Below are positions 36 through 24,665 of a DNA stretch of 24,707 nucleotides, one piece after another. Position numbers and translations under genes: made by a program. The stretch's first letter is position 1. The number at the start of each line of letters is the position of its first letter. The notes beneath the pieces are model-generated. The model did no database searches. It saw nothing but the letters and a program-made list of their open reading frames with translations, and had not been told where the DNA came from. Location: the NCBI GenBank assembly GCA_040755315.1, contig JBFMBF010000017.1, positions 1 through 24,707 on the forward strand, in the 5' to 3' direction. Origin of the DNA: Candidatus Hadarchaeota archaeon (GTDB taxonomy: Archaea; Hadarchaeota; Hadarchaeia; Hadarchaeales; Hadarchaeaceae).

Positions 36-3000
36 ATGGATCGATACGACGGCAGCTACCTCATTGATGTCTATGTGGGCGGAATGCTCACCTGGTCGAA
101 CGCCGGCAGGTGGTGGGAGCAGTGGGGCGTGGGACAGACCAGAGCAGCACCCCCGATACTGCTCATGATCCGCGACAGCGTAACCGGGGAATACGTGCAG
201 TACCACGACGCTCAGCGGGTCCGGGTCAGCCGCGTGGCTGTTGACACCTGGGTCTACGATTTTGAAGTTTTTGGGATTCTTCCGAGTGTCCCCGGCCATC
301 TCCTTTTAAGGGCGCAGAGAGCCACAGATGGAACCTTGGCTGTAACCCTGCAGGGTCACACAGGTCTTCATCCTTCGGACATCTTCCTCCAGAATCACGA
401 GACCGATGTCCTGCTCTGGTCGAACGCTGGCGGCACGGAGCAGAACCACGTCGGCGAAACGCAGACGGTTTCGGGTTACATCCTGCGCTGGTGCTCCGTC
501 CTGCCCTCGCTGACTTACTCTTACACCGTGCGGGGGGATCATCCCGACAACTACATGATTCCAACGGAAGCATTCTACTACGGCGGGGTCGCTGAATCCG
601 TCAGCTACACCGCATCCGCAAGCGTGACAATCGAAGTCAGGGAGGGTGACGCGGGGGTCCCTGGAGACGCCGGTAACACCATCGCTCAGGCGCGCGCCAT
701 AACCCCCGGCGACTACTGGGGCTACTTCGGCCCGGACGATCCATCCGACTTCTACTCCATCCAATCGCCGAGCGGGCTGCTGAGCGCAAGCATGGCGCCG
801 GGCAGCGACTACGACATCTACCTCTACGACGCGGGCCAGAACCTGCTCGCGAAGTCGGAGAACCGGGGGGACGCGGACGAGGAAATAACATATGCTGTCA
901 AAACGCCGGGGCAGTATTTCCTGGAGGTCCGGAAAGTCGAGGGGTTCGGACCGTATACCTTCAGCGTGGAAATAGAGCCGGAGCTGCCGGTGGTGGCGGT
1001 GGGGCCGGGGCTCAGCTCCCCGGCCGTCGCCTACGGGGACAACCGCTTCCTGGTAGTCTGGAACGACAGGGACAGCCGGATAGCTGGGAAAATATACGAC
1101 CTTGATGGGAATGTTGTAAAATCGAAGTTCACGGTCGCAGCGTCAACTATGCTTGGCGGTCCTTCCGTGGCATTCGGCGGCGGCAGCTTCTTCGTGGCCT
1201 GGCCTTACCAAGATCATTTGGGTGTGTGGCGTATCGGTGGCGCCGTCTTCGACCCGGACGGCAGCGTCGTGAAACCCGACTTCGAGATTGCCAGCGGCTC
1301 AAGCGCGAAGGTCGCATTCGGCGGCGGCAGGTTCATTGTGGCTTGGAAGAATGGGAATGAAATCCGCGCGGAAATGTTCAACGGCTGGGGAGATGGGTTG
1401 GGCACCTTTTCGATCTCCCATCCAGACCATTCGTATTTTGAACCCTCCGAGCCGTTTTCTCCACCGGCACCGCAGGAAGGCGCCGTAGAGGAGTGGAACT
1501 TCCAAAGCATTTCTTTCTCGGGCGGCAGGTTCCATCTGGGCTGGATTGGGCGAGCCTACAAATGGGGACGTTACAGCGAGGCCGAAGAACCAATCGTTTC
1601 AATAAGGTGGGACTGGAGCCGCACACATTTCGGCATAACCCCTGTCACGCCAGCTGGAGTCTTGGGTGAAACTAAAATTTTTGGACTTCGGGAAGAGTAC
1701 TTCGATGAAATTAAAATAGAATATCCCGGTTATCCTCCTTCAGAATCTTCATCATCTTGGTCGAAGGGCTCGTTCAACACAGCTTCTGCCCTGGCCGGAG
1801 GGGACAAAATAATGGTTGGACTCGGCGCAGAAGGTCTTGAAAATATCCTGATCCTGAACGCAGGCGAATATAGTTTGCTGGAGCAGCAGAAGTTCGGGTT
1901 CGGCCCGTCACGACTGATGGTTTTTGACGGAGTCCGGTTCATGGCGGTATTTCCGGGACATGAAAAAGCGGTGTTCACGGACGGGGAAGGCGTTTGGGAC
2001 GAAATTAATCTGAAGGTCTCAATTGCAAATCCCGCGGGGGCAGCGGAAGGCGGAAAATACTTCATTGTCGGGGAAAAAGATGGGAACATCCAAGCCATCG
2101 GCGCCCCAGTATTCCAATCTCTTATTTCTCCGGGCAACAGAAGTCTTGTTGTTTCCCCAGCCTTGGCGATGGACTGGTCGGACGCCAAAGACATCTACGG
2201 AGGAAGCTGCACCTACACTTTACTGCTTGGCAAAGACTCGGGCCTGTCGGTGCCATCTTTCGCCGCCCCAGACATCCTTGCTTCAAACTACTCTTCGATG
2301 CCGGAGCTCGATGACCTTACATATTATTGGCGCGTCGCTGCTCACGGAAAAACAAATATCCGGCTGGAAAACTTGTCCCAGGAAATCAGCGTTGGCCTGC
2401 GCCCGGAGTACAATTCTTGGTCCGAAGTCGGCCTATTTACCGTCGACACCCAAAGCCGGGCCTCCCTCATCGCCGCGGTCAACGGCGCCGCAGGACAATC
2501 ATTATGGATTCCAGCCATGCCCGCCGCCATCACAGCTGAAGCCATGGACAATGTGATAGATGTTGGCGGCATAGAGCTGTGGTACCGGTACAGCCACGAC
2601 GGGGCGAACTGGACCGGATGGGCGCCGGTTTTGGTTGATTATGTGAAAAGCGGAGGCCCCGAGCCGGTCAACGATTCAAGAGCTCATGAAGTTTCCCAGC
2701 TGCCGTGGGAGTGGCAGTACCCGGCCATCAGCAGTTACGAGAATGGAAGGGGCAGGCGTTATTACTACTTCAGGGACTTCTACGACTGGGGCCACTACGA
2801 ATTTTTCAGTGTTTTGAAAGATCGGTGGGGCAATAGGGAACTTCATCCATCCGAGGCGGACGTGCGCGTGTATTTCGAGAAGCCGACGTCGGTGAGGCTT
2901 GGCGACAGCGTGCGTGGTAAAGTTTCAAACTTCCCGAAGCGTTACGATTTCGACGTCCCCGAGAACACGCCGCAGTTGTACGTTAACTTGGACTGGTCCC

Positions 3001-6000
3001 GCGGCGACCTCGACCTGCATCTTTACGACCCGTCAGGCAGACACATCGGCACCACTGGCGAGAACCGTGACCATGAGATTGGCATCCTTGGCGCCGAATG
3101 CTCTGGGCCACTTTCCAAGCCCGAATGGATACTCGTGTCCAAGCCCAGGCCCGGGCGCTGGTCCGCGGAGGTTCGTCCTTATGGTCTAGAAGCGGAGGAG
3201 AATTTCACACTTGAGGTATTTACCGCAGCATCAAGGCCCGAATCGTCTCTCAGCTTGGTTGGGCCGTACTGGCACAACGCTTCGACGACACCGTTTGAAG
3301 TCAGAGCGGAGGCGTTTGAAACCACCATCCGGAAAGGTTGGGAGACAGTTGGTGCCCTGTGGGTCCGCCAGTTTGGCGCTTTGCATGAAGATGTTGCGTA
3401 CGGCATAGTTGTGGACAGCGCGGGAGATGTCTATGTGGCGGGAAGTTTAAGGGACGGCCTGTCCGGTCAGGTTCCTCAAGGAAGCACGGACGTTTTTGTT
3501 CGGAAATACAATGGTCAAGGAAGTGAGCTATGGACCCGCCAGTTTGGCACTTACAGTCAGGATGAGGCCTGGGGAGTTGACATTGGCAGGACGGATGTCA
3601 CAACCGATGGGAACGGCAGCATATACGTCGTTGGTTATACTTGGGGCGCTTTGTCTGGCCAGAGCCACTATGGGGGCAGCGATGGTTTTGTTAGAAAGTA
3701 TGACTCTCATGGCAACGAGCTCTGGACAAGGCAGTTCGGCACTTCAGATGTGGACGCCGCTTTCGGCGTTGCCGCGGGAAGTGATGGAAGCGTGTACGTG
3801 GCAGGCCACACTTATGGTAACCTGTCCAACCAAATCAATCAAGGATTCTCAGACGTGTTCCTGCGGAAGTACGATGCTCATGGCAGCGAGATCTGGACCC
3901 GCCAGTTCGGCACCTCCGGCTATGATTCAACATGGGATGTAACTGTGGATGGCGCCGGAAATGTTTACTCCGTTGGTTTCACAAGTGGCGCCTTGCCCGG
4001 CCAAGCTCACTTAGGAGGTTACGATGTGTTCATAAGGAAATACGATCCTCATGGCAACGAGCTATGGACGAAGCAGTTCGGCACAACTGGCCACGACGAG
4101 GCTTTTGGCGTGGCTTCAGAATCTTCGGGAAACATTTACCTGGTAGGTATTGCTGATGGGGCCTTGCCAGGCCAGGTCGGCTACGGAAGTAACGACGGGT
4201 TTGTGCGGAAATATGATGCGCACGGCAACGAGCTCTGGACGAGGCAGTTCGGAACTTCCTTAGGCGACTGGACTTACAAGGCAGGCGTCGACGCCGCCGG
4301 AAATGTATACATCGCCGGAGCCACAGAAGGGGCTCTTACAGGCTACAGCCAAAAGGGAAATTATGACGCATGTGTGTGGGCATACGATGCCAAAGGCAAT
4401 GAACTCTGGTCCTATCAGTTTGGCACTCCGGGAGTTGACGAGGCTTTCGACGTTGCCGCCGACGGTGCGGGGAATGTTTATGTGGTGGGCTGGGCTTCGG
4501 GTGCCCTGTTTGACCAGACACACCAAGGATATTCCGACGCCTTTGTGATGAAAATAGCGACGTCGGGGATCAAGCAAGTCGAGCTTTGGTACCGCCGCTC
4601 GTCTGACAATGTGGTCTGGTCTGACTGGAAGCCGTGTTCCACCGACAACTCCGAGCCGTTTTCATGGTCGTTCGGCGCTCCGGACGGAGACGGGTATTAT
4701 GAATTTTACAGCGCGGCAATGAACAGGGCTGGAAATCGCGAGTTGCCCCACGTAACAGCCGATGCTCAGGTCAGTGTTGATAAAAAACCTCCACAATCGT
4801 GGGTTCTTTCCCTCGATTCCGGCTGGCGGAACGCGTCGACGACCCCCTTTGAAGTGACAGCCAGTGCATCTGACGGGTTGAGCGGAACCGAGAAAGCCGC
4901 GCTCTGGTACAGGCATTCGGGCGACAACCTCACATGGGGGCGATGGAAACTCTTCGGGACGGACAATCAAGGACCCTGGTCTTGGTCTTTCACGGCTCCA
5001 GATGGCGGAGGATACTACGAATTTTGTTCCACAGCAGTTGATCTTGCGGGCAACGAGGAAGGGGCGCTGATCGATTCCCAACTGTTCAAGATTTCGACTT
5101 TTTCCGGGAGCGTGCGTGGCAGAGCCGTGGCAGAGTTTGAAAACGGAGAATCACATGCCCGCACGAGTTATGCGGACTGGATTGGAATATTTGGTGAGCA
5201 AATCTACGGATATTGGGATGACGGCTGGCCACACTGGATTCATATGGCCATTATGGACAAAGATGAATTTGTAGTGAAAGCCAAGCTGGAAGAATTTTTG
5301 GAAGAAATTGAAGTTGTTTCAGTACCGGTTCCACAACACGTTAGATACTGGCTTTCCCAACTTGACGACCCGGCCGAGTACGGGTTTGGTTCTCAGTGGG
5401 ATGTTGACACGACAACAATCTTCCAGGGATTCAAGGGGAGGATGTGGTTACCAGAACCGATAAAAACCGGAGAACTGGCAGTGCTTTCCGCCGGAGGATA
5501 CATTTATAGTGAAATTTTGCGCGAAGAGATATACGAAAATGTGCGGGCTGAGATTTTTGACCTACTGGGGGAGTTGGAAACTATTGTACGGCACCCCGCA
5601 AGAGCCGAGGCTCGCTTGGCTGTTGACATTACTCCTCCCGAATCGTCTGTTGGACCCATAACACCTTATTGGAGGGTCGCAGGCGCGGTGCCATTCAATG
5701 TTCGCGCCACGACATCCGATGCGCTGAGTGGAGCCGAAAACGTTGAACTCTGGTATCGCCACTCTCAGGACAACCTGATATGGGGCGACTGGAAACTGGT
5801 CGGTGAAACTCCTGCCGTGGAAATAAATCTGCTAAGTGAAAGCTTTGACGGGAAAACTTGGAGTTCATTGGCACTGCAGGGGTGGGATCCTCAGGGCGGA
5901 GCCAATCCCTCCGTGACGGACGGCGTGCTTTTTGTCCCACTAAACTCTTACCCGAAAAAACCCCTGACAGTGGATCCGCCGTTTACAGTTGAGGCCAAGA

Positions 6001-9000
6001 TAAAAAGCGACGGTTGGTCCCACCTCTACATCGCGGGAATAGACGAAATGCAGGTCACACCGCCGGCCGACAACCTCTGGCACACGGCCACCATCATCGC
6101 CACGGCTCCGGTCGACGGAAGGTTCAAAGTGTTGGCATACCTGGACAACGAACTCCAGGATGTGGCCGAAGACTTGGACGCTTCTTGGGCAAGGCTCGAG
6201 TATATAGAGCTGGAGGGTCCGGCCGCATCGGGGAATGCCTGGTTCGACAACATCGTAGTGTACAGGCGGGTTGAACCGAAGTGGTCGTTCAGCGCTCCGG
6301 AAGGGGACGGTTATTATGAGTTTTACTCCATAGCGATTGACCGGGCCGGCAACCGCGAGGAGCCTCCAGACGCGGCAGACGCGCAGGCTGGCGTCGACAC
6401 TACTCCTCCAGAGTCGTCGGCGAATCCGGTCGAGCCCTATTGGCACAACGCCTCGTCCATGCCCTTCGAGGTAACCTCCGCCGCGTCGGACGGCCTGAGC
6501 GGCGTCGGGAAAGTCGAGCTGTACTACAGATACTCGGCGGACAACTTGGACTGGAGCCACTGGAAACCCTACGGCGCCGATTCAGTACCATCGGACGGCT
6601 TTAGCTGGGGCTTCGGCGCCCCCGAAGGCGACGGATACTACGGGTTCATGACCATCGCCACGGACTCTGCAGGGAACGCCGAATCCAAGCCTCTGGCGAG
6701 CCATGAAAACAGTGTCTTCGGCCGCGTCTTGTACGACAACGGCGACCCGGTTGAAGGGGTCCAGGTCAGCTTTTCGTACTGGGACGAACAGACGGCTTCT
6801 TATGAAACAATCAAATACACCGATTCGAACGGCTACTACGAGATACCGATAACCTCGGCGAACCCGCACGGTTACAGCGAGTGGGGCTTCAACGTGATCA
6901 AGTGGATGCCGAGCGGCATGTGGGCCGGTATCGGTACTGGGTTCGAGAACGGCCCGCTACACGTCTTTGGGGAGTACGCCGGAACTTACCTGCCGGAAAG
7001 CAAAACTTGGGCTGTCGACGGCATGATGGGCTCGCGCGTTGACGTTGCGATTTCAGCGAAGCCGGTCACATTCTGGGGCCACAGCGAGTACAAGCGGTTT
7101 TACAACATGGCGGGCTCGCAAACTCTGACGTTTGACTACCCGTTCGGGAAGGCGGACGCGACGCACATGGGAGGGGGGAACGTATACATCGAGGGGGGCG
7201 ACCTGCGGACGAAGTCATTCGATGCGACGCTTTACGACGCGACCGAAGGCAAAGCGATTCTGACGGTAACTGTGGGCGGGCGCGGGGAATACTGGGATTC
7301 GCTTGTCATCGACAATAAAACCGTGTTGCAGAACCTTCTCGGCCACCAGCTGGAGTGGCGAATCAACGCGGCCGATGTCATAGACTACATTTACGCTGGC
7401 AAGTCCTTCTGGGGCGTTGTTCAGAATGTCCCGTCCTACGGCTGGACGCAATCAAGGCACCTTGTCGTGGCGGACTACTCTCCAAATCACGGCGTTGGGC
7501 GACAGGAATCCGAGGCCGGCGTGGATACTGCACCCCCGGAGATTGAGCACGACCCCCTTGACGAATGGCAGAGTTCCGACCCGTACGAGGTCAAGGCTAC
7601 CGTGGTGGATGAAACGTCCGGCCTCGCGCCCGGCTTTCCCTCGCTCCATTATCTTACATTGAACAACCCGACATTTTCAGACGGGTTCGACGGCAGCGCT
7701 CTGGACGCAACGAAGTGGGCCACCGGAAGCACGAAGGTGACCTGTTCTCAAATCGCGACTGCAAACGGGGCGCTTGAGTTGACGGCGAGGGCGGCCAGGT
7801 CCGGAACATACGGCGCGAACTACGTCGTCTCAAAATCACCGTTCGACTTCAACCAGGGGATGGCGTTTGAAATCCCAATGAGCGTCTCAACCTATGACGC
7901 CCCGGCCGACTTCAGGGGCGAGTTCTACCTGACGCCTACATTCACTACCACAACCAACCCGCACGACCAGCCGGACTGGTTAAGGCTCTCAGCGAGCGTC
8001 GACCGCGAAGGAGTCAGGTGGATGCTGCAGCGCAGACGCGGCGGGGGAGGGATTGGGACGCTCGGCGAGAACGAAACCTTCGAGGGGAACGAAAACGCAG
8101 AAGAGCCCCACATGTACACCTCGGGCCCGACGCGGAAGCTCAGCAGCGCCTGGAGGATTTTCATAGACAGCGAGAACGTCACCGTCTGGCTCGACAACGA
8201 GCTGGTGGAGCCGACCAGGCCACACGGGATGAATTTCACCAGCGCATACGCCTACCTGGCCCTGCGGACGAAAGTCGCCCCAGTCTACACCGTCAGGTTC
8301 GACCGTTTTGCCGCCGGAGCGCTGAACTGGACCCAGGCAAACATGCAGCCAACGGGACAGCCGGACGAGTACTCGGCTTCAATTCCCGACATGCCTGATG
8401 AAGCGGCGGTCTGGTACTACATCGGCGCGGCAGACAGGGCTGCAAACACCTCCACGAACCCAGCCGGAGCCCCAGCGAACCCGTACATGTTCATCGTGGA
8501 CAAGGCGCCTCCGGTATCGTTTGTAACCCCCATCACGCTATTCTGGCAGAAATCAACCTCGTTGGCAGTCTCGGCAACCGCGTCTGATGAGGGTAGCGGC
8601 GTTGAATCGGTCCAACTGTTTTACAGATACTCGCCCGACAACCGAATTTGGGGAGACTGGGTATCGCTCGGTGCCGACGGCAATAGTCCGTGGAAGTGGC
8701 AGTTCGGCTTCCAGGACGGCGAGGGGTTCTATGAGTTCTACAGCCTAGCCGTCGACCGCGCCGGCAACGTTGAAGATTTGCTGCCTGAAGCTGACGCTGG
8801 CTGCGGCATCGATTTGACCCCTCCAGAGTCATCTGTCAATCCCGTGACGCCTTACTGGCAGAACGCTTCGATGGTGCCGTTCGTCGTGAATGTCACCGCA
8901 TTTGATGCAACGAGCGGCGTGAAAAGCGTCGGCCTGTACTACCGATATTCAGCTGACAACGGAATCTGGGGCGAATGGGCGCTCCACGGTGTCGACGAAG

Positions 9001-11504
9001 CCGCCCCGTATTCCTGGCAGTTTTCAGCTCCAGACGGCGACGGTTACTATGAGTTTTACAGTGCCGCCACGGACGCTGCTGGAAATGCTGAAGCCGCGTC
9101 AACGGCTACCTCGGGCTGGCTGGCGGGATGGCAGCGCCGCAGGCCGGTGACGATCAGCAACGGCGCGGGGCAGCTGGACGGATACCAGGTGAGAGTCGAG
9201 GTGCCGCGGAGTTCCGACATGAGGCAGGGCTACGAAGACCTCAGGTTCACGATGGGTGACGGCGCAACCCTGCTGCCACACTGGGTCGAGAACCGCGGCA
9301 CGGCATCCGCAGATGTCTGGGTCCGGGTGCCATCGGTCCCAACGGGAGAGACCACAGTCTACATGTACTACGGCAACACGGCCGCCATGGACGCGAGCGA
9401 TGGGAACGCCACTTTCGAGTTCTTCGACGACTACTCAGGAACCTCGCTCGATACCGGAAAGTGGAACGTGAGGTACGGCTCGCCAACCGTGGCCAACTCT
9501 GTTTTGACTCTTGAGGGCAGCGACGGCAAGGACGCGATAAGGAGCAAGGCCTCGTGGGGAACCGGATACGCGTTCAGGTATAAGGACAGGCCGAGGAACG
9601 CGACCGAGTCCCAGGACGCATGGGCCAACGCCAACAGTTCGTGGGACTTCTCGGACGACTCCGAAGCCGTGCTGGCTTTCCCCGGCAACAACCTTATGTA
9701 CTTCAGGACCAGAACGGGCGGCAGCCCGACCACAAGCACCGGCGTCTGGACGGTTTGGGATCCCGACTGGGCCGTCTTTGAGATACAGAGGCCCGACTCC
9801 TCGGCAGCCAGGCTGTTCGGGAACGACACTTTGATAGTGCAGAACACGTCAAACATCCCAACCGTGCCGCTGTTCGTGGGTCACGAGGCAAACGTGAGTA
9901 CCCTTCTGGTGGACTGGTCCCTCGTCCGCAAGATAGCTCTAATTGAGCCGACCACGAGCGTTGGGGCAGAAGAGCAACAGGCGGGGCGGGCGGATGCCAT
10001 GTGCGGCGTGGACACCGTGCCGCCCGCGACCGGTCACGAGCTGTCTGGAGAAGAGGGTGACAACGGCTGGTGGCGCAGCAACGTTGGCATTGAGCTGGGC
10101 GCCGAGGACAACCTGAGCGGCGTGAGCAGGACGCTTTACCGAATCGACGGCGGGGCGTGGCAAACCTATGCTAACCCGTTCATCATCGGCGACGGCATTC
10201 ACATCGTTGACTACCGCTCTGCCGACATTGCTGGCAACTTGGAGGCAATCAGGCCGGTCGAGATAAAAGTTGACACGACCCCGCCAGTTTCATCGGTGAA
10301 TCAAATCGAACCATTCTGGCAGGACTCGGCGCCGTTCACAGTCTCGGTGATGGCGTCCGACGCCACAAGCGGAGTTGAGAGAGTCAAGCTGTTTTACAGA
10401 AGCTCGATAGACAACTCGAACTGGACGGCGTGGGAGTTGTTCGGCAGCGATGATTCGGCGCCGTACGAGTGGCAATTCACGGCGCCGGACGGCTACGCCT
10501 TGTATGAGTTCTACTCGGTTGCCGCAGATGTCGCCGGGAACGTTGAGAGCGCGCCGGATGTTGCAGATTCTTCATGCGGGTTGACAATCCCGGCCGAGGT
10601 AGACATCGACCCCGACACCCTGAACCTGAACAGCAACGGCAAGTGGGTCACCGCCTACATAGAGCTGCCGCAGGGTCACGATTTCGGGAACGTTCGCATA
10701 CTGGGCATAATGCTGAACGACGCGGTCCCGGCGGAGTCGAGCCCCACATACGGGTTCGTGAAGGACCCGCAACTGGTCGATCGAGACGGGGACGGGCTGC
10801 CGGAGCTGATGGTGAAGTTCAGCCGTTCGGCGGTGCAGGCGCTGGTGGACGTCGGCGATGTGAAGCTGACGGTGACCGGGAAGTGGCACGCGGTGCTGTT
10901 CGAGGGGAGCGACAACATCCGCGTGATTGATCCGGGCCAAGACCAGGGCAGCCAAGGAAACGGCCAAAGGTCGCCGACGACGCCTCCAGGACAGAGTGGG
11001 CAGCCTTCAGGTCAAGGGGGTGGCCAAGGGCAAAGCAGCCAGGGAGGGCAGCAGGTGGGCCAGGGACAACCCCAGACACCTTTAGGGCATGGCACCGGCG
11101 GCGGGAACCAGGGCAGTAGCCAGAGCCAGGGCAACGGGCGGGGGCAGTCGCAGTCCAACCCGGGGCACGGCGGCCAGCCACCAGGACAGAACTCCAACGG
11201 CCAGGGCGATGCTGGCCAGGGACAAGGGAACGCGCAGGGCGGCTCCAGCAATCAGGCAGTTGATAATCAAAGCCCGGTAGAAACGTCCCAAGCGCAGGAG
11301 AGTCAGGGCACCTGCAATCAGGACAATCAGGCTCAGGTCGGCCAAGACAACCAATCGCAAGTAAACCAAGTTAATGAAAATCAATGGGTGCCGAGCACGC
11401 CCCAAGGACAGGGAAACCAGAGCGGACAGCAGGCAAACAAGGATAACCAATCATCCCAAGGCCAAGGCAATCAAAACGGGCAGGGAAAGGGCAAGACCAA
11501 ATAA
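36..11504 (+). CDS. Giant (>=3822 aa) multidomain, probably secreted or cell-surface protein; N-terminus probably lies outside the window
   Basis: Single uninterrupted ORF. The same frame is open from nt 3 (VRKEGDFYSAT before the Met at 36), and no signal peptide is visible. Contains PPC-like, propeller, Ig-like, lectin-like and DUF2341-like segments, many N-x-S/T sequons and a Q/G-rich C-terminus. Confidence 0.9.
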   Translation: MDRYDGSYLIDVYVGGMLTWSNAGRWWEQWGVGQTRAAPPILLMIRDSVTGEYVQYHDAQRVRVSRVAVDTWVYDFEVFGILPSVPGHLLLRAQRATDGTLAVTLQGHTGLHPSDIFLQNHETDVLLWSNAGGTEQNHVGETQTVSGYILRWCSVLPSLTYSYTVRGDHPDNYMIPTEAFYYGGVAESVSYTASASVTIEVREGDAGVPGDAGNTIAQARAITPGDYWGYFGPDDPSDFYSIQSPSGLLSASMAPGSDYDIYLYDAGQNLLAKSENRGDADEEITYAVKTPGQYFLEVRKVEGFGPYTFSVEIEPELPVVAVGPGLSSPAVAYGDNRFLVVWNDRDSRIAGKIYDLDGNVVKSKFTVAASTMLGGPSVAFGGGSFFVAWPYQDHLGVWRIGGAVFDPDGSVVKPDFEIASGSSAKVAFGGGRFIVAWKNGNEIRAEMFNGWGDGLGTFSISHPDHSYFEPSEPFSPPAPQEGAVEEWNFQSISFSGGRFHLGWIGRAYKWGRYSEAEEPIVSIRWDWSRTHFGITPVTPAGVLGETKIFGLREEYFDEIKIEYPGYPPSESSSSWSKGSFNTASALAGGDKIMVGLGAEGLENILILNAGEYSLLEQQKFGFGPSRLMVFDGVRFMAVFPGHEKAVFTDGEGVWDEINLKVSIANPAGAAEGGKYFIVGEKDGNIQAIGAPVFQSLISPGNRSLVVSPALAMDWSDAKDIYGGSCTYTLLLGKDSGLSVPSFAAPDILASNYSSMPELDDLTYYWRVAAHGKTNIRLENLSQEISVGLRPEYNSWSEVGLFTVDTQSRASLIAAVNGAAGQSLWIPAMPAAITAEAMDNVIDVGGIELWYRYSHDGANWTGWAPVLVDYVKSGGPEPVNDSRAHEVSQLPWEWQYPAISSYENGRGRRYYYFRDFYDWGHYEFFSVLKDRWGNRELHPSEADVRVYFEKPTSVRLGDSVRGKVSNFPKRYDFDVPENTPQLYVNLDWSRGDLDLHLYDPSGRHIGTTGENRDHEIGILGAECSGPLSKPEWILVSKPRPGRWSAEVRPYGLEAEENFTLEVFTAASRPESSLSLVGPYWHNASTTPFEVRAEAFETTIRKGWETVGALWVRQFGALHEDVAYGIVVDSAGDVYVAGSLRDGLSGQVPQGSTDVFVRKYNGQGSELWTRQFGTYSQDEAWGVDIGRTDVTTDGNGSIYVVGYTWGALSGQSHYGGSDGFVRKYDSHGNELWTRQFGTSDVDAAFGVAAGSDGSVYVAGHTYGNLSNQINQGFSDVFLRKYDAHGSEIWTRQFGTSGYDSTWDVTVDGAGNVYSVGFTSGALPGQAHLGGYDVFIRKYDPHGNELWTKQFGTTGHDEAFGVASESSGNIYLVGIADGALPGQVGYGSNDGFVRKYDAHGNELWTRQFGTSLGDWTYKAGVDAAGNVYIAGATEGALTGYSQKGNYDACVWAYDAKGNELWSYQFGTPGVDEAFDVAADGAGNVYVVGWASGALFDQTHQGYSDAFVMKIATSGIKQVELWYRRSSDNVVWSDWKPCSTDNSEPFSWSFGAPDGDGYYEFYSAAMNRAGNRELPHVTADAQVSVDKKPPQSWVLSLDSGWRNASTTPFEVTASASDGLSGTEKAALWYRHSGDNLTWGRWKLFGTDNQGPWSWSFTAPDGGGYYEFCSTAVDLAGNEEGALIDSQLFKISTFSGSVRGRAVAEFENGESHARTSYADWIGIFGEQIYGYWDDGWPHWIHMAIMDKDEFVVKAKLEEFLEEIEVVSVPVPQHVRYWLSQLDDPAEYGFGSQWDVDTTTIFQGFKGRMWLPEPIKTGELAVLSAGGYIYSEILREEIYENVRAEIFDLLGELETIVRHPARAEARLAVDITPPESSVGPITPYWRVAGAVPFNVRATTSDALSGAENVELWYRHSQDNLIWGDWKLVGETPAVEINLLSESFDGKTWSSLALQGWDPQGGANPSVTDGVLFVPLNSYPKKPLTVDPPFTVEAKIKSDGWSHLYIAGIDEMQVTPPADNLWHTATIIATAPVDGRFKVLAYLDNELQDVAEDLDASWARLEYIELEGPAASGNAWFDNIVVYRRVEPKWSFSAPEGDGYYEFYSIAIDRAGNREEPPDAADAQAGVDTTPPESSANPVEPYWHNASSMPFEVTSAASDGLSGVGKVELYYRYSADNLDWSHWKPYGADSVPSDGFSWGFGAPEGDGYYGFMTIATDSAGNAESKPLASHENSVFGRVLYDNGDPVEGVQVSFSYWDEQTASYETIKYTDSNGYYEIPITSANPHGYSEWGFNVIKWMPSGMWAGIGTGFENGPLHVFGEYAGTYLPESKTWAVDGMMGSRVDVAISAKPVTFWGHSEYKRFYNMAGSQTLTFDYPFGKADATHMGGGNVYIEGGDLRTKSFDATLYDATEGKAILTVTVGGRGEYWDSLVIDNKTVLQNLLGHQLEWRINAADVIDYIYAGKSFWGVVQNVPSYGWTQSRHLVVADYSPNHGVGRQESEAGVDTAPPEIEHDPLDEWQSSDPYEVKATVVDETSGLAPGFPSLHYLTLNNPTFSDGFDGSALDATKWATGSTKVTCSQIATANGALELTARAARSGTYGANYVVSKSPFDFNQGMAFEIPMSVSTYDAPADFRGEFYLTPTFTTTTNPHDQPDWLRLSASVDREGVRWMLQRRRGGGGIGTLGENETFEGNENAEEPHMYTSGPTRKLSSAWRIFIDSENVTVWLDNELVEPTRPHGMNFTSAYAYLALRTKVAPVYTVRFDRFAAGALNWTQANMQPTGQPDEYSASIPDMPDEAAVWYYIGAADRAANTSTNPAGAPANPYMFIVDKAPPVSFVTPITLFWQKSTSLAVSATASDEGSGVESVQLFYRYSPDNRIWGDWVSLGADGNSPWKWQFGFQDGEGFYEFYSLAVDRAGNVEDLLPEADAGCGIDLTPPESSVNPVTPYWQNASMVPFVVNVTAFDATSGVKSVGLYYRYSADNGIWGEWALHGVDEAAPYSWQFSAPDGDGYYEFYSAATDAAGNAEAASTATSGWLAGWQRRRPVTISNGAGQLDGYQVRVEVPRSSDMRQGYEDLRFTMGDGATLLPHWVENRGTASADVWVRVPSVPTGETTVYMYYGNTAAMDASDGNATFEFFDDYSGTSLDTGKWNVRYGSPTVANSVLTLEGSDGKDAIRSKASWGTGYAFRYKDRPRNATESQDAWANANSSWDFSDDSEAVLAFPGNNLMYFRTRTGGSPTTSTGVWTVWDPDWAVFEIQRPDSSAARLFGNDTLIVQNTSNIPTVPLFVGHEANVSTLLVDWSLVRKIALIEPTTSVGAEEQQAGRADAMCGVDTVPPATGHELSGEEGDNGWWRSNVGIELGAEDNLSGVSRTLYRIDGGAWQTYANPFIIGDGIHIVDYRSADIAGNLEAIRPVEIKVDTTPPVSSVNQIEPFWQDSAPFTVSVMASDATSGVERVKLFYRSSIDNSNWTAWELFGSDDSAPYEWQFTAPDGYALYEFYSVAADVAGNVESAPDVADSSCGLTIPAEVDIDPDTLNLNSNGKWVTAYIELPQGHDFGNVRILGIMLNDAVPAESSPTYGFVKDPQLVDRDGDGLPELMVKFSRSAVQALVDVGDVKLTVTGKWHAVLFEGSDNIRVIDPGQDQGSQGNGQRSPTTPPGQSGQPSGQGGGQGQSSQGGQQVGQGQPQTPLGHGTGGGNQGSSQSQGNGRGQSQSNPGHGGQPPGQNSNGQGDAGQGQGNAQGGSSNQAVDNQSPVETSQAQESQGTCNQDNQAQVGQDNQSQVNQVNENQWVPSTPQGQGNQSGQQANKDNQSSQGQGNQNGQGKGKTK
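663..975 (+). other. PPC-like (pre-peptidase C-terminal) domain 1 within the giant ORF
   Basis: Motifs DAGNT..A..I, D.SDFY.I, DYDIYLYD, DEEITY, PGQYFLEV, GPYTFSV. Confidence 0.75.
1000..2100 (+). repeat. Degenerate beta-propeller-like repeats (PxVAxGxxxFxVxW)
   Basis: PAVAYGDNRFLVVW, PSVAFGGGSFFVAW, AKVAFGGGRFIVAW, ISFSGGRFHLGW; boundaries approximate. Confidence 0.6.
2890..3225 (+). other. PPC-like domain 2 within the giant ORF
   Basis: YDFDVPE..QLYVNLDW..GDLDLHLYDPSG...PEWILVSKPRPGRWSAEV..FTLEV. Confidence 0.7.
3360..4560 (+). repeat. Seven tandem SBBP-type beta-propeller repeats (57 aa, 171 nt)
   Basis: W-x-x-Q-F-G motifs start at 3360, 3531, 3723, 3894, 4065, 4236 and 4407 (spacing 171 nt, once 192 nt). 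Each is followed by D.A.GV..D..GNVYV.G and D.FVRKYD..G.EL or close variants. Confidence 0.9.
9113..9975 (+). other. DUF2341-like domain plus lectin-like extension within the giant ORF
   Basis: GWLAGWQRRRPVTI, YQVRV, DLRFT, LLPHWVE, VWVRVPSVP, VYMYYGN, ATFEFFDD, VDWSLVRK. Confidence 0.8.
10930..11501 (+). repeat. Gln/Gly/Asn/Ser low-complexity C-terminal tail (~190 aa)
   Basis: Repeated GQG, QGN, PPGQ and QDNQ units; ends GQGKGKTK; no hydrophobic transmembrane segment. Confidence 0.9.
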
Positions 11505-13061: not shown

Positions 13062-13109
13062 ACATGCGCTTGAATCCAACAATTTACGACCTGCCCGCGT
13101 TTTTCCCCC

Positions 13110-13116
13110 TTAAATA
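13110..13116 (+). promoter_or_regulatory. Putative TATA box (TTAAATA) for a plus-strand transcript of the intergenic/tRNA-like region
   Basis: Matches archaeal TATA consensus downstream of the tgtA stop and a T-tract; no purine-rich BRE. Confidence 0.35.
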
Positions 13117-13160
13117 CCCCGTCCGCTCAAAGCTTCGGCGGGAAGATGACAAACACTGAA

Positions 13161-13232
13161 CCAATTAAAATAAAAAAATCCCGCGGGGCAACCCACGGGA
13201 CAACCCGCAGCCCTGCTGAATTGACATCTGTC
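13161..13232 (-). ncRNA. Putative antisense small RNA unit 1, complementary to the 5' half of the tRNA-like RNA
   Basis: Minus strand reads AGCAGGGCUGCGGGUUG-UCCCGUGGG(UUGC)CCCGCGGGA-UUUUUUUAUUUU, with upstream AAAAATTATTTA at 13253-13242. 13180-13217 aligns to 13266-13300 with 29/35 identities. Confidence 0.5.
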
Positions 13233-13262
13233 ACGCTCGCCTAAATAATTTTTGGGTGAGGT

Positions 13263-13348
13263 GGGCCCGTGGGGTAATCTGGATAGCCCGCAGCCCTGCT
13301 AACCAGCGGGTACGAGGCTAAGTCCGGGTTCAAATCCCGGCGGGCCCG
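13263..13348 (+). tRNA. tRNA-like RNA with Arg-like body and aberrant anticodon arm; identity undetermined (possible non-canonical intron or pseudo-tRNA)
   Basis: Acceptor GGGCCCG/CGGGCCC plus G73; U8-G9; D arm GGGT-AATCTGGATA-GCCC; T arm CCGGG-TTCAAAT-CCCGG. Anticodon stem CAGCC/GGCTA encloses 20 nt instead of 7; variable loop is 3 nt. Confidence 0.75.
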
Positions 13349-13350
13349 CA

Positions 13351-13412
13351 CCATTAAAACAAAAACGGGCGGTCAAAAGACAGCCGCAACCCCTGCTAGT
13401 TCGCATTTGTTT
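13351..13412 (-). ncRNA. Putative antisense small RNA unit 2, paralog of unit 1 (could alternatively be the hisF 3' UTR/terminator)
   Basis: Minus strand reads AGCAGGGGUUGC-GGCUGUC(UUUU)GACCGCC-CG-UUUUUGUUUU, with upstream TTTTATC at 13423-13417. Shares flanks CCA(A)TTAAAA.AAAAA and CAT.TGT with unit 1. Confidence 0.4.
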
Positions 13413-13440
13413 GACAGATAAAACTTGTTTAGAGGTCTTG

Positions 13441-14860: not shown

Positions 14861-14969
14861 CGGAACCCTGACGACTGTGGTTCTGGGCTTAATTTGGTTT
14901 TGGGAGCGGCGCTTGGCTTAACCTTATCAAAAAGTGTGGGTTTATTTAATCGGGAGTAAGGTAAGGTGC

Positions 14970-16559
14970 ATGCAAAAGACGGCAAAAATAAGAAAGCTGG
15001 CCCATAACGGCGTCCTGGTCCCGGCCTACGGGCCGCAGGGTTTTGCCATAGGCTACGATGGCAGAAAAATCAAACTGACGCCGGATCAGGAAGAGATGGC
15101 AGTTTCCTGGGCCCGGAAACTAGGGACGGACTATGTGAAAGACCCGGTCTTCGCGAGGAACTTTGCCAGGGATTTCTCCAAAGCTCTCGGGCTGGAAAAG
15201 GAAGCTAGGATGGACGACTTTGACTTTTCAAGAATAACTCAATGGCTGGAAAAGGAAAAAACAAGGAAAGAAAAAATGCCGCGGGAGGAAAAAAGGGCGC
15301 TGGCTGAAGCCAGGGAAAAAATCAGGGAAACCAACAGGGAAAAATACGGCTATGCAGTCCTGAACGGCGAGAAAGTTGAAATTGCCAACTACATGGTGGA
15401 GCCACCGTCGATATTCATGGGGAGAGGCAAGCATCCTCTGCGCGGGAGATGGAAGCCAAGTGTTGAATACGAAGACATCACCCTGAACCTTTCTGAAGAT
15501 GCTCCAACCCCAAAGCTTCCAGCTGGCAGAAAGTGGAGTGGAAGGGTGTTTGACCCCACGGCCCTCTGGGTGGCGAGGTGGAGGGACAAGCTGGCAGACA
15601 AGATGAAGTACGTCTGGATATCGGAGACTGCCAGGCCGAGGCAGGAGCGGGAGATGGAGAAGTTCAACACCGCGCTGAAGCTTCAGGACCGTATAGAAGA
15701 TGTGCGCAGATACATTTTACAAAACCTGAACTCGAAAGATATGCTCAGGCGCAAGGTGGCAACTGTTGCTTACCTGATAGACGCCCTCAAGCTCAGAGTC
15801 GGTGACGAGAAGGAAAAAGACGAAGCCGATACCGTAGGGGCCACCACCCTGCGAGGCGCGCATGTCAAGATAAACTCGGGTGGAAAAGTGAACTTTGATT
15901 TCTTGGGGAAGGACTCGGTGAGGTGGACGAAGACGGTGGAGCTGCCGCCGCAGGTTGTTCATAACTTGAAATCCCTCATCAAGGGGCCCCGTGACATGAT
16001 ATTCAATGGCGTCCGCTCAAACCTTGTAAACTCTTTTCTGAACGAGGCGATGCCTGGTCTTACCGCGAAGGTCTTCAGAACTTACCATGCCACGAAAATA
16101 GTGAGCGACTATCTCTCCCAAAACAATGTTTCTCCTTCAGACCCAGAAATCAAGAAAAAATTTGTCGCGACATCGGCAAACCTCCGGGCTGCCATTGCCT
16201 GCAACCACAAGCGCAAGCTCCCAAAGAGTTGGGAGTCGTCTATGGAGAAAAAAACAATGCGCCTCAAGTCGCTGGAAGAAAAGCTCAGAGAACTCAGGGA
16301 CATGCCCAAAACAATGGCACGGCTCAAAAGGATGAAGAGGCTGCGGGCGGAAATCAAGTCCGCGAAATTGAAGCTTGAAATGGCCAGCATGACCAAGAAC
16401 TACAACCTCGTCACATCACTCAAGAGTTACATAGACCCGAGAGTCTACGCCATCTGGGCCAAGAAAAACTCGTACGACTGGAAGCAGGTATACCCGAAGA
16501 GCCTGCAAAGGAAGCTGTTGTGGGTCGAAGAAGACTTCGGCAAGTGCCAATCAGATTAA
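14970..16559 (+). CDS. top1B: Eukaryote-like DNA topoisomerase IB
   Basis: L.HNGV, VEPP.IFMGRGKHPLRG, LRVGDEK, FDFLGKDS, LTAKVFRTYHA, CNHKR, TSLKSYIDPR (catalytic Tyr codon 16428-16430). ATG at 14970 is preceded by AAGGTG and by TTTATTTAA at 14941. Confidence 0.95.
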   Translation: MQKTAKIRKLAHNGVLVPAYGPQGFAIGYDGRKIKLTPDQEEMAVSWARKLGTDYVKDPVFARNFARDFSKALGLEKEARMDDFDFSRITQWLEKEKTRKEKMPREEKRALAEAREKIRETNREKYGYAVLNGEKVEIANYMVEPPSIFMGRGKHPLRGRWKPSVEYEDITLNLSEDAPTPKLPAGRKWSGRVFDPTALWVARWRDKLADKMKYVWISETARPRQEREMEKFNTALKLQDRIEDVRRYILQNLNSKDMLRRKVATVAYLIDALKLRVGDEKEKDEADTVGATTLRGAHVKINSGGKVNFDFLGKDSVRWTKTVELPPQVVHNLKSLIKGPRDMIFNGVRSNLVNSFLNEAMPGLTAKVFRTYHATKIVSDYLSQNNVSPSDPEIKKKFVATSANLRAAIACNHKRKLPKSWESSMEKKTMRLKSLEEKLRELRDMPKTMARLKRMKRLRAEIKSAKLKLEMASMTKNYNLVTSLKSYIDPRVYAIWAKKNSYDWKQVYPKSLQRKLLWVEEDFGKCQSD

Positions 16560-23832: not shown

Positions 23833-24579
23833 ATGGAACTTTTTGGACTCTCCATCCCGCTAGTAAAGCCGGGAGATGACTTGCCAAGACTGCTTGTGAT
23901 GGCGGCTAAGGATGCTGGAGGCCTCGAAAAAGGAGACATCTTGGTGGTTTCTTCGAAAGTGGTGGCCACTGCGGAGGGAAGGATGGTCGAGCTTTCAAAG
24001 GTAAAACCGTCGAAAAAAGCGAGGCTGCTGGGGGTGGAGACCAAGCTCCCCCCGGAGTTTGTTGAAGTGGTTCTGAATGAGGCGGACAGGGTACTCGGTC
24101 ACGTTGAGGGTGCAATATTGACTGTTAAAAGTGGTGTGCTGAGCGCTAACGCTGGGGCTGACCAGTCAAACGTGCCACGAGGATTTGCCGTGCTGATGCC
24201 CAAGGACCCTGATGGCTCTGCTGAGAAAATCAGGCGGGCGGTTCTCAAGAGGCTCGGGGCAAAAGTGGGCGTCGTGATCTCCGACAGCAGCGTCAAGCCG
24301 CTGAGGCTTGGAACCGTCGGGCAGGCTGTCGGCGTGGCTGGCTTCGAGCCTGTGGTCGACTGCCGCGGCCAGCCTGACCTCTACGGGCGGCGGCTCAAGA
24401 TTACCTTCCAGGCTGTCGCTGACCAGCTGGCCACCGCGGTGCAGCTGTTGATGGGAGAGGGCGCGGAAAAAATCCCGGCCGTGGTAGTGCGCGGCTCTGG
24501 AGTAAAGACTGTTGAAAAACCAAAAAGTTCTCCGAAAGTTCCGCTGAAAAAAGACATCTATTCAAAACTGTTCAAATAG
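23833..24579 (+). CDS. cofE: CofE-family gamma-glutamyl ligase (F420-0:L-glutamate ligase-like)
   Basis: PLVKPGDDL, GDILVVSSKVV..AEG, ANAGADQSN, P.DPD.SA, VVISDS...PLRLG..G.A.G, GQPDLYGR.L..T...VADQLA, GEG.E..P.VVVRG. Confidence 0.9.
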   Translation: MELFGLSIPLVKPGDDLPRLLVMAAKDAGGLEKGDILVVSSKVVATAEGRMVELSKVKPSKKARLLGVETKLPPEFVEVVLNEADRVLGHVEGAILTVKSGVLSANAGADQSNVPRGFAVLMPKDPDGSAEKIRRAVLKRLGAKVGVVISDSSVKPLRLGTVGQAVGVAGFEPVVDCRGQPDLYGRRLKITFQAVADQLATAVQLLMGEGAEKIPAVVVRGSGVKTVEKPKSSPKVPLKKDIYSKLFK

Positions 24580-24580
24580 G

Positions 24581-24665
24581 TGGGCCCGCGGGGATTCGAA
24601 CCCCGGTAACTACCGATCCCAGACTTCTTGTGAGGGTAGTGTCTTAACCACTGGACCACGGGCCC
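24581..24665 (-). tRNA. tRNA-Val(CAC) with a 13-nt intron at position 37/38 (24616-24628)
   Basis: GGGCCCG TG GTCC AGTGGTTA AGAC A CTACC CT-CAC-A[AGAAGTCTGGGAT]C GGTAG TTAC CGGGG TTCGAAT CCCCG CGGGCCC A. BHB has central helix CUCA/UGGG and bulges CAA and AUC; A73. Confidence 0.93.

Follow-up and report, generated by a model that had tools for sequence, protein, structure and literature searches.

A tRNA-shaped gene between tgt and hisF

We analysed a window of 24,707 nucleotides from a Candidatus Hadarchaeota archaeon (contig JBFMBF010000017.1, assembly GCA_040755315.1; host genome of 1.2 Mb, here G000), in which a cassette of less than 350 bases lies between an archaeosine-type tgt gene on one side and a convergent hisF gene on the other. 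The cassette holds a tRNA-derived gene on the plus strand (13263-13348), with an Arg-type body and an interrupted, enlarged anticodon loop, and, on the minus strand, the putative gene of a short antisense RNA complementary to it; the two could act as a toxin and its antidote. The tRNA-plus-antisense family to which they belong is real, conserved, and undescribed as far as we searched the literature: among the open main texts that made up this search, no tRNA gene with an antisense antidote module was found.

The Rfam tRNA model recognises the gene with 43.2 bits (gathering score 29, E 2.8e-6; the tRNA-Val gene of the window scores 56.1), and our family model R1 gives it 84.7 bits. ARAGORN, which an earlier note made from the letters of this stretch had proposed as a check, returns no confident standard call and names the gene tRNA-???. 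Its acceptor stem has 7 base pairs (bp; 13263-13269/13341-13347), the T arm is perfect with a 5-bp stem, the D loop has 10 nt, and U8, G18G19 (13281-2), A20 (13283) and G73 (13348) all stand where the earlier note had placed them. That note had also recorded a C27-A43 mismatch, a variable loop AGT, 20 nt (13296-13315) in place of the 7-nt anticodon loop, and a hairpin within this insert; these are present, as is every feature it recorded. A single event, the loss of G43, accounts for the mismatch as well as for the 3-nt variable loop; the paralogue on contig C13 of the host genome retains this base. The 9-bp acceptor that it described (extended by a G-C and a U-G pair) and the encoded ACCA are likewise there, but relatives do not retain them; no CCA follows G73 directly, and the 3' trailer CACCA (13349-13353, plus strand) differs among relatives.

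A tRNA-Sec would carry a UCA anticodon and a long variable arm, and a tRNA-Pyl a 6-bp anticodon stem with a small D loop; both identities are ruled out by the 7-bp acceptor, the 5-bp T stem, the 10-nt D loop with G18G19 and the short variable loop. A kink turn in the internal loop was dismissed by eye.

The focal gene is not an ordinary intron-containing archaeal tRNA gene: it has no 7-nt-loop intron, supplies no missing anticodon and occupies no fixed locus. None of its 13-nt registers contains a splice motif (1/4 pairs in the central helix). The anticodons listed in the earlier note, which had implied that the gene does not fill a gap, are all encoded elsewhere in the host genome, whose set includes Ser-GCU, Val-GAC/UAC/CAC, Gly-GCC, and Arg-UCU, CCU, CCG, UCG and GCG (multi-intron genes read by eye). 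The element is absent behind tgt in all three relatives with enough flank (G001, G004 and G009; the contig of G053 ends there and G002 gave no match), and model R1 finds none at 24 hisF-like loci of relatives; the element is therefore an insertion. Several cassette insertion sites adjoin RNA-handling genes, the focal one lying beside tgt; others stand directly before the gene of the CCA-adding enzyme (L065, L071; G053 C4, G052 C41) or of L7Ae (L042, L094; G000 C35, G002 C34).

A TATA-like box (13110-13116) and a conserved 30-nt motif, located by profile search, make up the predicted promoter and leader of the cassette (13100-13146, plus strand), which would drive the tRNA precursor. The same leader motif occurs at about 30 places in the host genome, ahead of tRNA cassettes and of about twenty protein genes, among them small regulator-like ones (several flanked by palindromes) and one gene each of ERCC4-like, OB-fold-like and nuclease-like type, and it precedes nearly every family member, relatives included. 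It possibly marks a stress regulon or a mobile promoter. By eye, the frame of a short open reading frame (ORF) in the leader is not kept in relatives. In G008, the motif heads a gene pair that resembles a RelE-type module, again as read by eye.

The antisense unit

A 20-nt repeat occurs before, within and after the focal gene. The copy before it would specify a cognate antisense small RNA of about 44 nt (13172-13217, minus strand), running from 13217 to about 13174; its first nucleotide would be the complement of tRNA nt 36, and a hairpin and U-tract (A-run 13172-13178) would close its 3' end. Its putative promoter, resembling a B recognition element and TATA box (13240-13256, minus strand), has a TTTA that ends 24 nt before the repeat. 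The predicted duplex with tRNA nt 3-38 has an energy of -73.4 kcal/mol, compared with a mean of -40.0 and a minimum of -57.7 among 500 shuffles, and retains a net -19 kcal/mol after unfolding. Behind the gene lies a second, diverged unit (13354-13432, minus strand; 70% repeat at 13379-13397, promoter-like stretch at 13415-13432, U-tract towards 13354), with a duplex of -27.5 kcal/mol and a net of 0 after unfolding; it is probably decayed or directed at a sister variant.

We searched for the same arrangement in the wider family, defining a cognate unit as a copy of the D-arm-to-anticodon segment that scores at least 11 and lies at most 170 nt upstream or 230 nt downstream. Such a unit accompanies 32 of the 36 family members, while none of 42 ordinary tRNA genes reaches even a score of 10, which bears out the importance that the earlier note had given to the antisense units. 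The sequence of the copy changes along with that of the neighbouring tRNA. On the minus strand of the units, a TATA-like box stands 19-28 nt ahead in 32/32 cases (107/1152 control anchors) and a U-tract follows in 29/32; both signals together mark 29/32 units and 47/1152 control anchors. Promoter spacing falls within 20-27 nt in 24 of 25 units, and the polarity of TATA box, antisense body and U-tract is identical for upstream and downstream units.

Four members have no unit at this threshold. The first (G002 C2) scores 10.5 with all signals present, the second (G000 C28) has a copy of another segment, the third (G053 C72) has a diverged unit, and the fourth (G002 C10) lacks a unit altogether; this gene has A32A33, its 1-72 pair is broken, and it shows no splice helix. 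Extra units, two of which resemble other members, are stacked at G000 C8, G001 C6, G002 C39 and G061 C56.

Of 24 predicted RNAs, 20 pair best with their cognate tRNA (21/25 if one that runs through its own gene is included), and this in-silico specificity is the observation that bears on a cognate neutralising interaction. Outside the cassettes, four predicted antisense RNAs of the host genome have a single weak site as their only partner. Overall, the antisense pairing has strong support. The antisense RNA was also considered as a toxin against host tRNAs and rejected, as the best host duplex reaches -32.7 compared with -47.5 for the cognate.

The earlier note had allowed for a precursor that needs a trans helper to be spliced, and a cognate, stably paired small RNA might in principle refold the precursor in this way. 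This is extremely improbable, because the partner covers parts that splicing needs: it occupies nt 3-38, including the D arm, the anticodon stem and the central helix. Moreover, the unit is retained in 9 of 10 intron-less members, for which splicing is not required.

A related arrangement was seen at L050 (G000 C8:3377-3680, minus strand), where a tRNA-like gene with a long variable arm follows a perfect copy of its own 5' half with an antisense promoter and a second, unrelated antisense unit. Behind the tRNA-like gene lies a gene with no Pfam match whose homologues follow cassettes in G015, G048, G053 and G054. Three small downstream proteins had no Pfam match.

A conserved family in Hadarchaeota

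Searches by DNA, model and pattern over up to 66 genomes of the phylum, as the earlier note had advised, recovered at least 36 full-length tRNA-derived relatives in 15 of the 66 genomes, spanning 7 genera and 2 families; the count is a lower bound, with about 48 of the top model matches read. In an alignment of 13 members (A2), 92.7% of cells pair and 15 of the 21 cloverleaf pairs change on both sides, figures that are inflated in that the rows are kin and the structure was drawn from the same rows. Compensatory changes occur in all four stems and are strong in the elbow and acceptor.

The minimum free energy (MFE) fold of the focal RNA is a long irregular rod (-56.2 kcal/mol, z -4.75), so the alternative long helix that the earlier note described is indeed the MFE structure, but its TAGCC/GGCTA pairing is lost in alignment A2 on inspection. 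A conserved two-state RNA is not supported, the cloverleaf being what covaries across the 13 members. The MFE fold loses the T arm in 18/36 family members compared with 9/36 ordinary tRNAs.

The distribution of the cassette is patchy, and many copies have been destroyed by deletion between the direct repeats (e.g. G000 C24 compared with the intact G002 C17). Such deletions follow mechanically from the repeats and are weak evidence of a cost.

Integration sites typically have direct repeats next to pieces of tRNA, and the whole arrangement could in principle be a scar of local duplication or integration in which neither RNA functions. The direct repeats themselves, at least five collapsed copies in the host genome and the base lost from the focal copy fit such a history. 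We regard it as very unlikely, given that promoter spacing and U-tract are fixed on the opposite strand, that upstream and downstream copies alike span the D-arm-to-anticodon segment, that all four stems show compensatory change, and that no integrase was found among the 12 window proteins scanned.

Beyond the phylum, exact-pattern scans of viral contigs gave no match, and a genome-wide collection gave one bacterial match that model R1 does not recognise. A metagenome scan returned 22 loci with a different, bacterial-type tRNA (L193-L214), in which the D arm is Arg-like, the anticodon is GAC and the anticodon stem closes poorly; their gene contexts vary, and one of the 22 (L203) has an antisense-like unit in the fetched DNA. 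Here (L203:20-266), an upstream 13-nt copy ends at the anticodon, and the minus strand reads as a -10 box, an antisense body and a strong intrinsic terminator (z -6.9). The same tRNA-plus-antisense design may thus possibly exist in bacteria.

Anticodon loop, splicing and identity

We confined the search for splice motifs to loop registers, an unrestricted scan for bulge-helix-bulge (BHB) motifs being too noisy. The earlier note had found no register with a proper BHB, which holds for the 13-nt registers, but a relaxed motif exists in a 12-nt register. This candidate intron (13303-13314, plus strand) has the bulge-helix-loop form, with 4/4 central pairs (two of them G-U), an exon-side helix of 2, an outer helix of 1 and a 3-nt 3' bulge. 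Its removal would leave an 8-nt anticodon loop with GCUA at positions 34-37, and ARAGORN labels the product spliced in silico tRNA-?(Ser|Pyl)(gcta).

Across the family, a perfect 4-bp central helix occurs in 11 of 20 interrupted members, compared with 0.95 expected from shuffles. Seven of these lie in the register that yields an 8-nt loop and four in one that yields a 7-nt loop (UCA twice, GUC twice), and five further interrupted members reach 3/4 central pairs in the 8-nt-loop register. Ordinary tRNAs of the host (Ile, Arg-CCU and Thr-GGU) also have 3/4 central helices, and the motif of the tRNA-Thr, with its 12-nt intron, is weaker than the focal one.

Native 8-nt loops are found in ten intron-less family genes from nine genomes. 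Five came from a pattern that permitted 64 loops and returned only YYGRCGGA, and five further ones from a pattern without loop information; together they include all four YYGRCGGA loops that splicing predicts. Their four-base anticodons are G/C-ACG or G-GCG, i.e. an arginine anticodon plus one base, and ARAGORN assigns four-base anticodons to seven of the ten. Other members have 6- or 9-nt loops (G004 C34, G001 C50).

The focal body carries arginine-type identity elements (A20, G73, C35 and U36), as judged by the set A20, C35, U/G36 and A/G73 described for bacteria in a source that leaves archaea uncharacterised (PMC9976931). The earlier note had held that no anticodon matches the Arg-like body; this does not stand, in that GCU fits, with C35 and U36 among these bacterial determinants.

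With their 8-nt loops, the intron-less relatives suggest a tRNA that decodes, and miscodes. They also bear on the non-decoding mimic that the earlier note had proposed, which persists as a rival: the RNA would remain unspliced and serve as a decoy or inhibitor (of the splicing endonuclease, arginyl-tRNA synthetase, EF-1alpha or an anticodon nuclease) or as a regulator of the C4 kind, and the antisense RNA would still silence it. The weak splice motif of the focal subfamily, a host endonuclease of the single-subunit type, the strong covariation of elbow and acceptor, and the position of some cassettes 16-25 nt ahead of a gene led by a Shine-Dalgarno sequence would all suit a mimic. We nevertheless consider it fairly unlikely, as the 8-nt loop is uniform in the ten intron-less members, the splice helix is found in 11/20 interrupted ones, no partner sequence occurs elsewhere in the host genome, the next gene at the focal locus, hisF, is convergent, and Rfam finds no C4/CI match at the element.

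Proposed mechanism

For the cassette, sequence comparison establishes the architecture, cognate complementarity, promoter and terminator geometry, cloverleaf covariation, the 8-nt loops of relatives and the patchy presence. We hypothesize, with a probability of roughly 55%, that it encodes a tRNA that shifts the frame or miscodes, together with an antisense antidote that keeps this tRNA inactive, and thus an RNA-only toxin-antitoxin-like pair, with expression, splicing, charging and toxicity inferred from sequence. The plus-strand promoter would yield a precursor tRNA with an arginine-type body and an abnormal anticodon loop, and the convergent promoter would yield the short antisense RNA, whose 5' end would meet the anticodon strand. 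Pairing, as predicted in silico, would then spread through the anticodon stem and D arm, preventing the tRNA from folding or being spliced. If the antisense RNA ran short, the precursor would be trimmed, any intron removed (in the register suggested by family comparison), and a tRNA with an 8-nt loop would enter translation. In most members, the tRNA would accept arginine and, by reading CGY together with one further base, shift the frame, while the focal GCUA could read through UAG(C) or place arginine at serine codons (AGC/AGU), either in frame or with a +1 shift. Proteome-wide miscoding would make the tRNA a poison and the small RNA its antidote, in an addiction module or a stress or abortive module.

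Among 1222 predicted host genes, in-frame CGCC occurs in 558, CGTC in 213 and AGC in 1127, and 79 genes end in TAGC; any such reader would therefore act proteome-wide. These frequencies also bear on a useful, conditional form of recoding, in which the tRNA is released under stress to serve frameshifted or amber-interrupted genes or to raise mistranslation, with the antisense RNA as an off switch rather than an antidote. The leader shared with regulator-like and nuclease-like genes and the consistent N-ACG/N-GCG four-base anticodons would fit such a role. With CGCC and CGTC so common, however, decoding could not be selective, and the patchy distribution and frequent deletion of copies also argue against it, so that we judge it unlikely. 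Likewise, long +1 continuations are in no excess after TAGC stops (17/79, compared with 0.16-0.27 for other stops). By this lack of enrichment, programmed UAGC recoding was ruled out, with no sign of genes built to need the reader.

Several observations weigh against a frameshifting or miscoding toxin. The rod is more stable than the cloverleaf by 16 kcal/mol in the precursor and 9 kcal/mol in the spliced form and, together with the loss of G43, suggests that the focal copy may be partly decayed. Its splice motif, taken alone, has a chance probability of about 9%. The nearest intact relatives (G002 C2, G002 C17 and G001 C23) reach no more than 2, 1 and 2 of the 4 pairs in the 12-nt-type register, and most nearest relatives carry, by eye, one extra base before G39, so that splicing would leave 9-nt loops or would not occur. 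No intron-less gene with the focal loop was found in 66 genomes, the 11 matches being six cassette copies, four ordinary Ser tRNAs and one other. Frameshifting is not general, since four members would splice to 7-nt loops, and an 8-nt loop can decode plain triplets (PMC7609411).

One splicing-endonuclease gene was found in the host, of single-subunit size (about 180 residues), and enzymes of this type reportedly handle relaxed motifs poorly (PMC6379350), although the ordinary tRNA-Thr of the host has a 12-nt motif that is weaker than the focal one. Despite this single gene, the tRNA set of the host has many genes with one to several introns at non-canonical positions. The antisense evidence has its own weak points, in that duplex mismatches lean to G-U by 15 to 6 without reaching significance (p 0.08), and that the G053 C72 member combines an 8-nt loop with only a diverged unit, its stems being weakened. 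Finally, the members are kin, so their counts overstate independence, and the first model included the antisense promoter, which introduces a bias into the upstream-type set.

In its broadest form, our hypothesis is that addiction modules made of RNA only form a natural family, with a miscoding tRNA (a four-base, amber, opal or missense reader) as the toxin and, as the antitoxin, an antisense RNA of 20-45 nt that blocks folding and splicing. Stacked spare antitoxins would confer immunity to sister variants, the focal copy would be an arginine-bodied UAGC reader, and a similar pair would perhaps exist in bacteria (L203). To this whole we give about an even chance.

Comparison with known systems

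The cassette most closely resembles the type VIII RNA-RNA toxin-antitoxin systems, for which the consulted passages name only creTA and SdsR-RyeA as validated loci (PMC10767807; PMC9458426). As in those systems, two neighbouring RNAs would act without a protein and many specificity variants exist; as in SdsR-RyeA, they lie on opposite strands. The candidate toxin here, however, is a tRNA gene, and the putative antidote, encoded by an imperfect copy that stands apart under a promoter of its own, is neither an overlapping transcript nor a CRISPR-type guide. Both predicted partners are RNAs encoded side by side, as type VIII requires, and the cassette would work like a type VIII pair; known here from sequence alone, it is not claimed as a member.

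Transfer RNAs with one extra loop base are known as +1 frameshift suppressors (SufA6, SufB2 and engineered UAGN readers; PMC11122139), and the focal GCUA has the layout of a UAGN reader. Whereas those described there are selected mutants or engineered, the present genes form a conserved, mobile family under predicted antisense control. Enlarged anticodon loops of 8-9 nt also occur naturally, as in yeast mitochondrial tRNA-Thr(UAG), a phage and a sponge case (PMC5009743; PMC7609411), are described as rare exceptions (PMC5009743), and need not shift frame (PMC7609411). In the passages of these sources, such tRNAs serve normal decoding or local rescue, with no mention there of an antisense partner or toxicity. 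In Hadarchaeota, enlarged-loop tRNAs instead form a conserved, diversified gene family, most with a dedicated antisense partner (32/36). If our reading is correct, a tRNA could be counted among toxins, tRNA maturation would be under antisense control in nature, and code expansion could draw on four-base readers that evolution has already tuned. There is also a consequence for annotation, as ARAGORN with introns allowed files such genes as Ser, Val, Gly or Asp tRNAs.

Two further systems invite comparison. The C4 RNA of phages P1 and P7 and the CI RNA of P4 are tRNA-like RNAs flanked by direct repeats in a mobile context, and they act as antisense effectors on mRNA; in the present cassette, the tRNA-like RNA would itself be targeted, and the repeats, in the same sense as the gene, have a promoter of their own on the opposite strand. 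A C4/CI-type antisense RNA was rejected for the element, with no Rfam match at E up to 5 and flanks that are same-sense copies. In SOS-induced type I loci such as tisB/IstR-1, a short antisense RNA from an opposing promoter restrains a toxic transcript in a similar way, but the toxin there is a peptide.

Other features of the window

Apart from the cassette, the window contains an ordinary tRNA-Val(CAC) gene (24579-24665, minus strand) with a strict 13-nt BHB intron. The same gene lies at the end of contig C25, suggesting that the window contig and C25 join there. An ORF of 3822 residues (36-11504) has beta-propeller, DUF2341 and Ig-like domains and probably encodes a surface protein, and a gene at 14934-16559 encodes a eukaryote-type (type IB) DNA topoisomerase.
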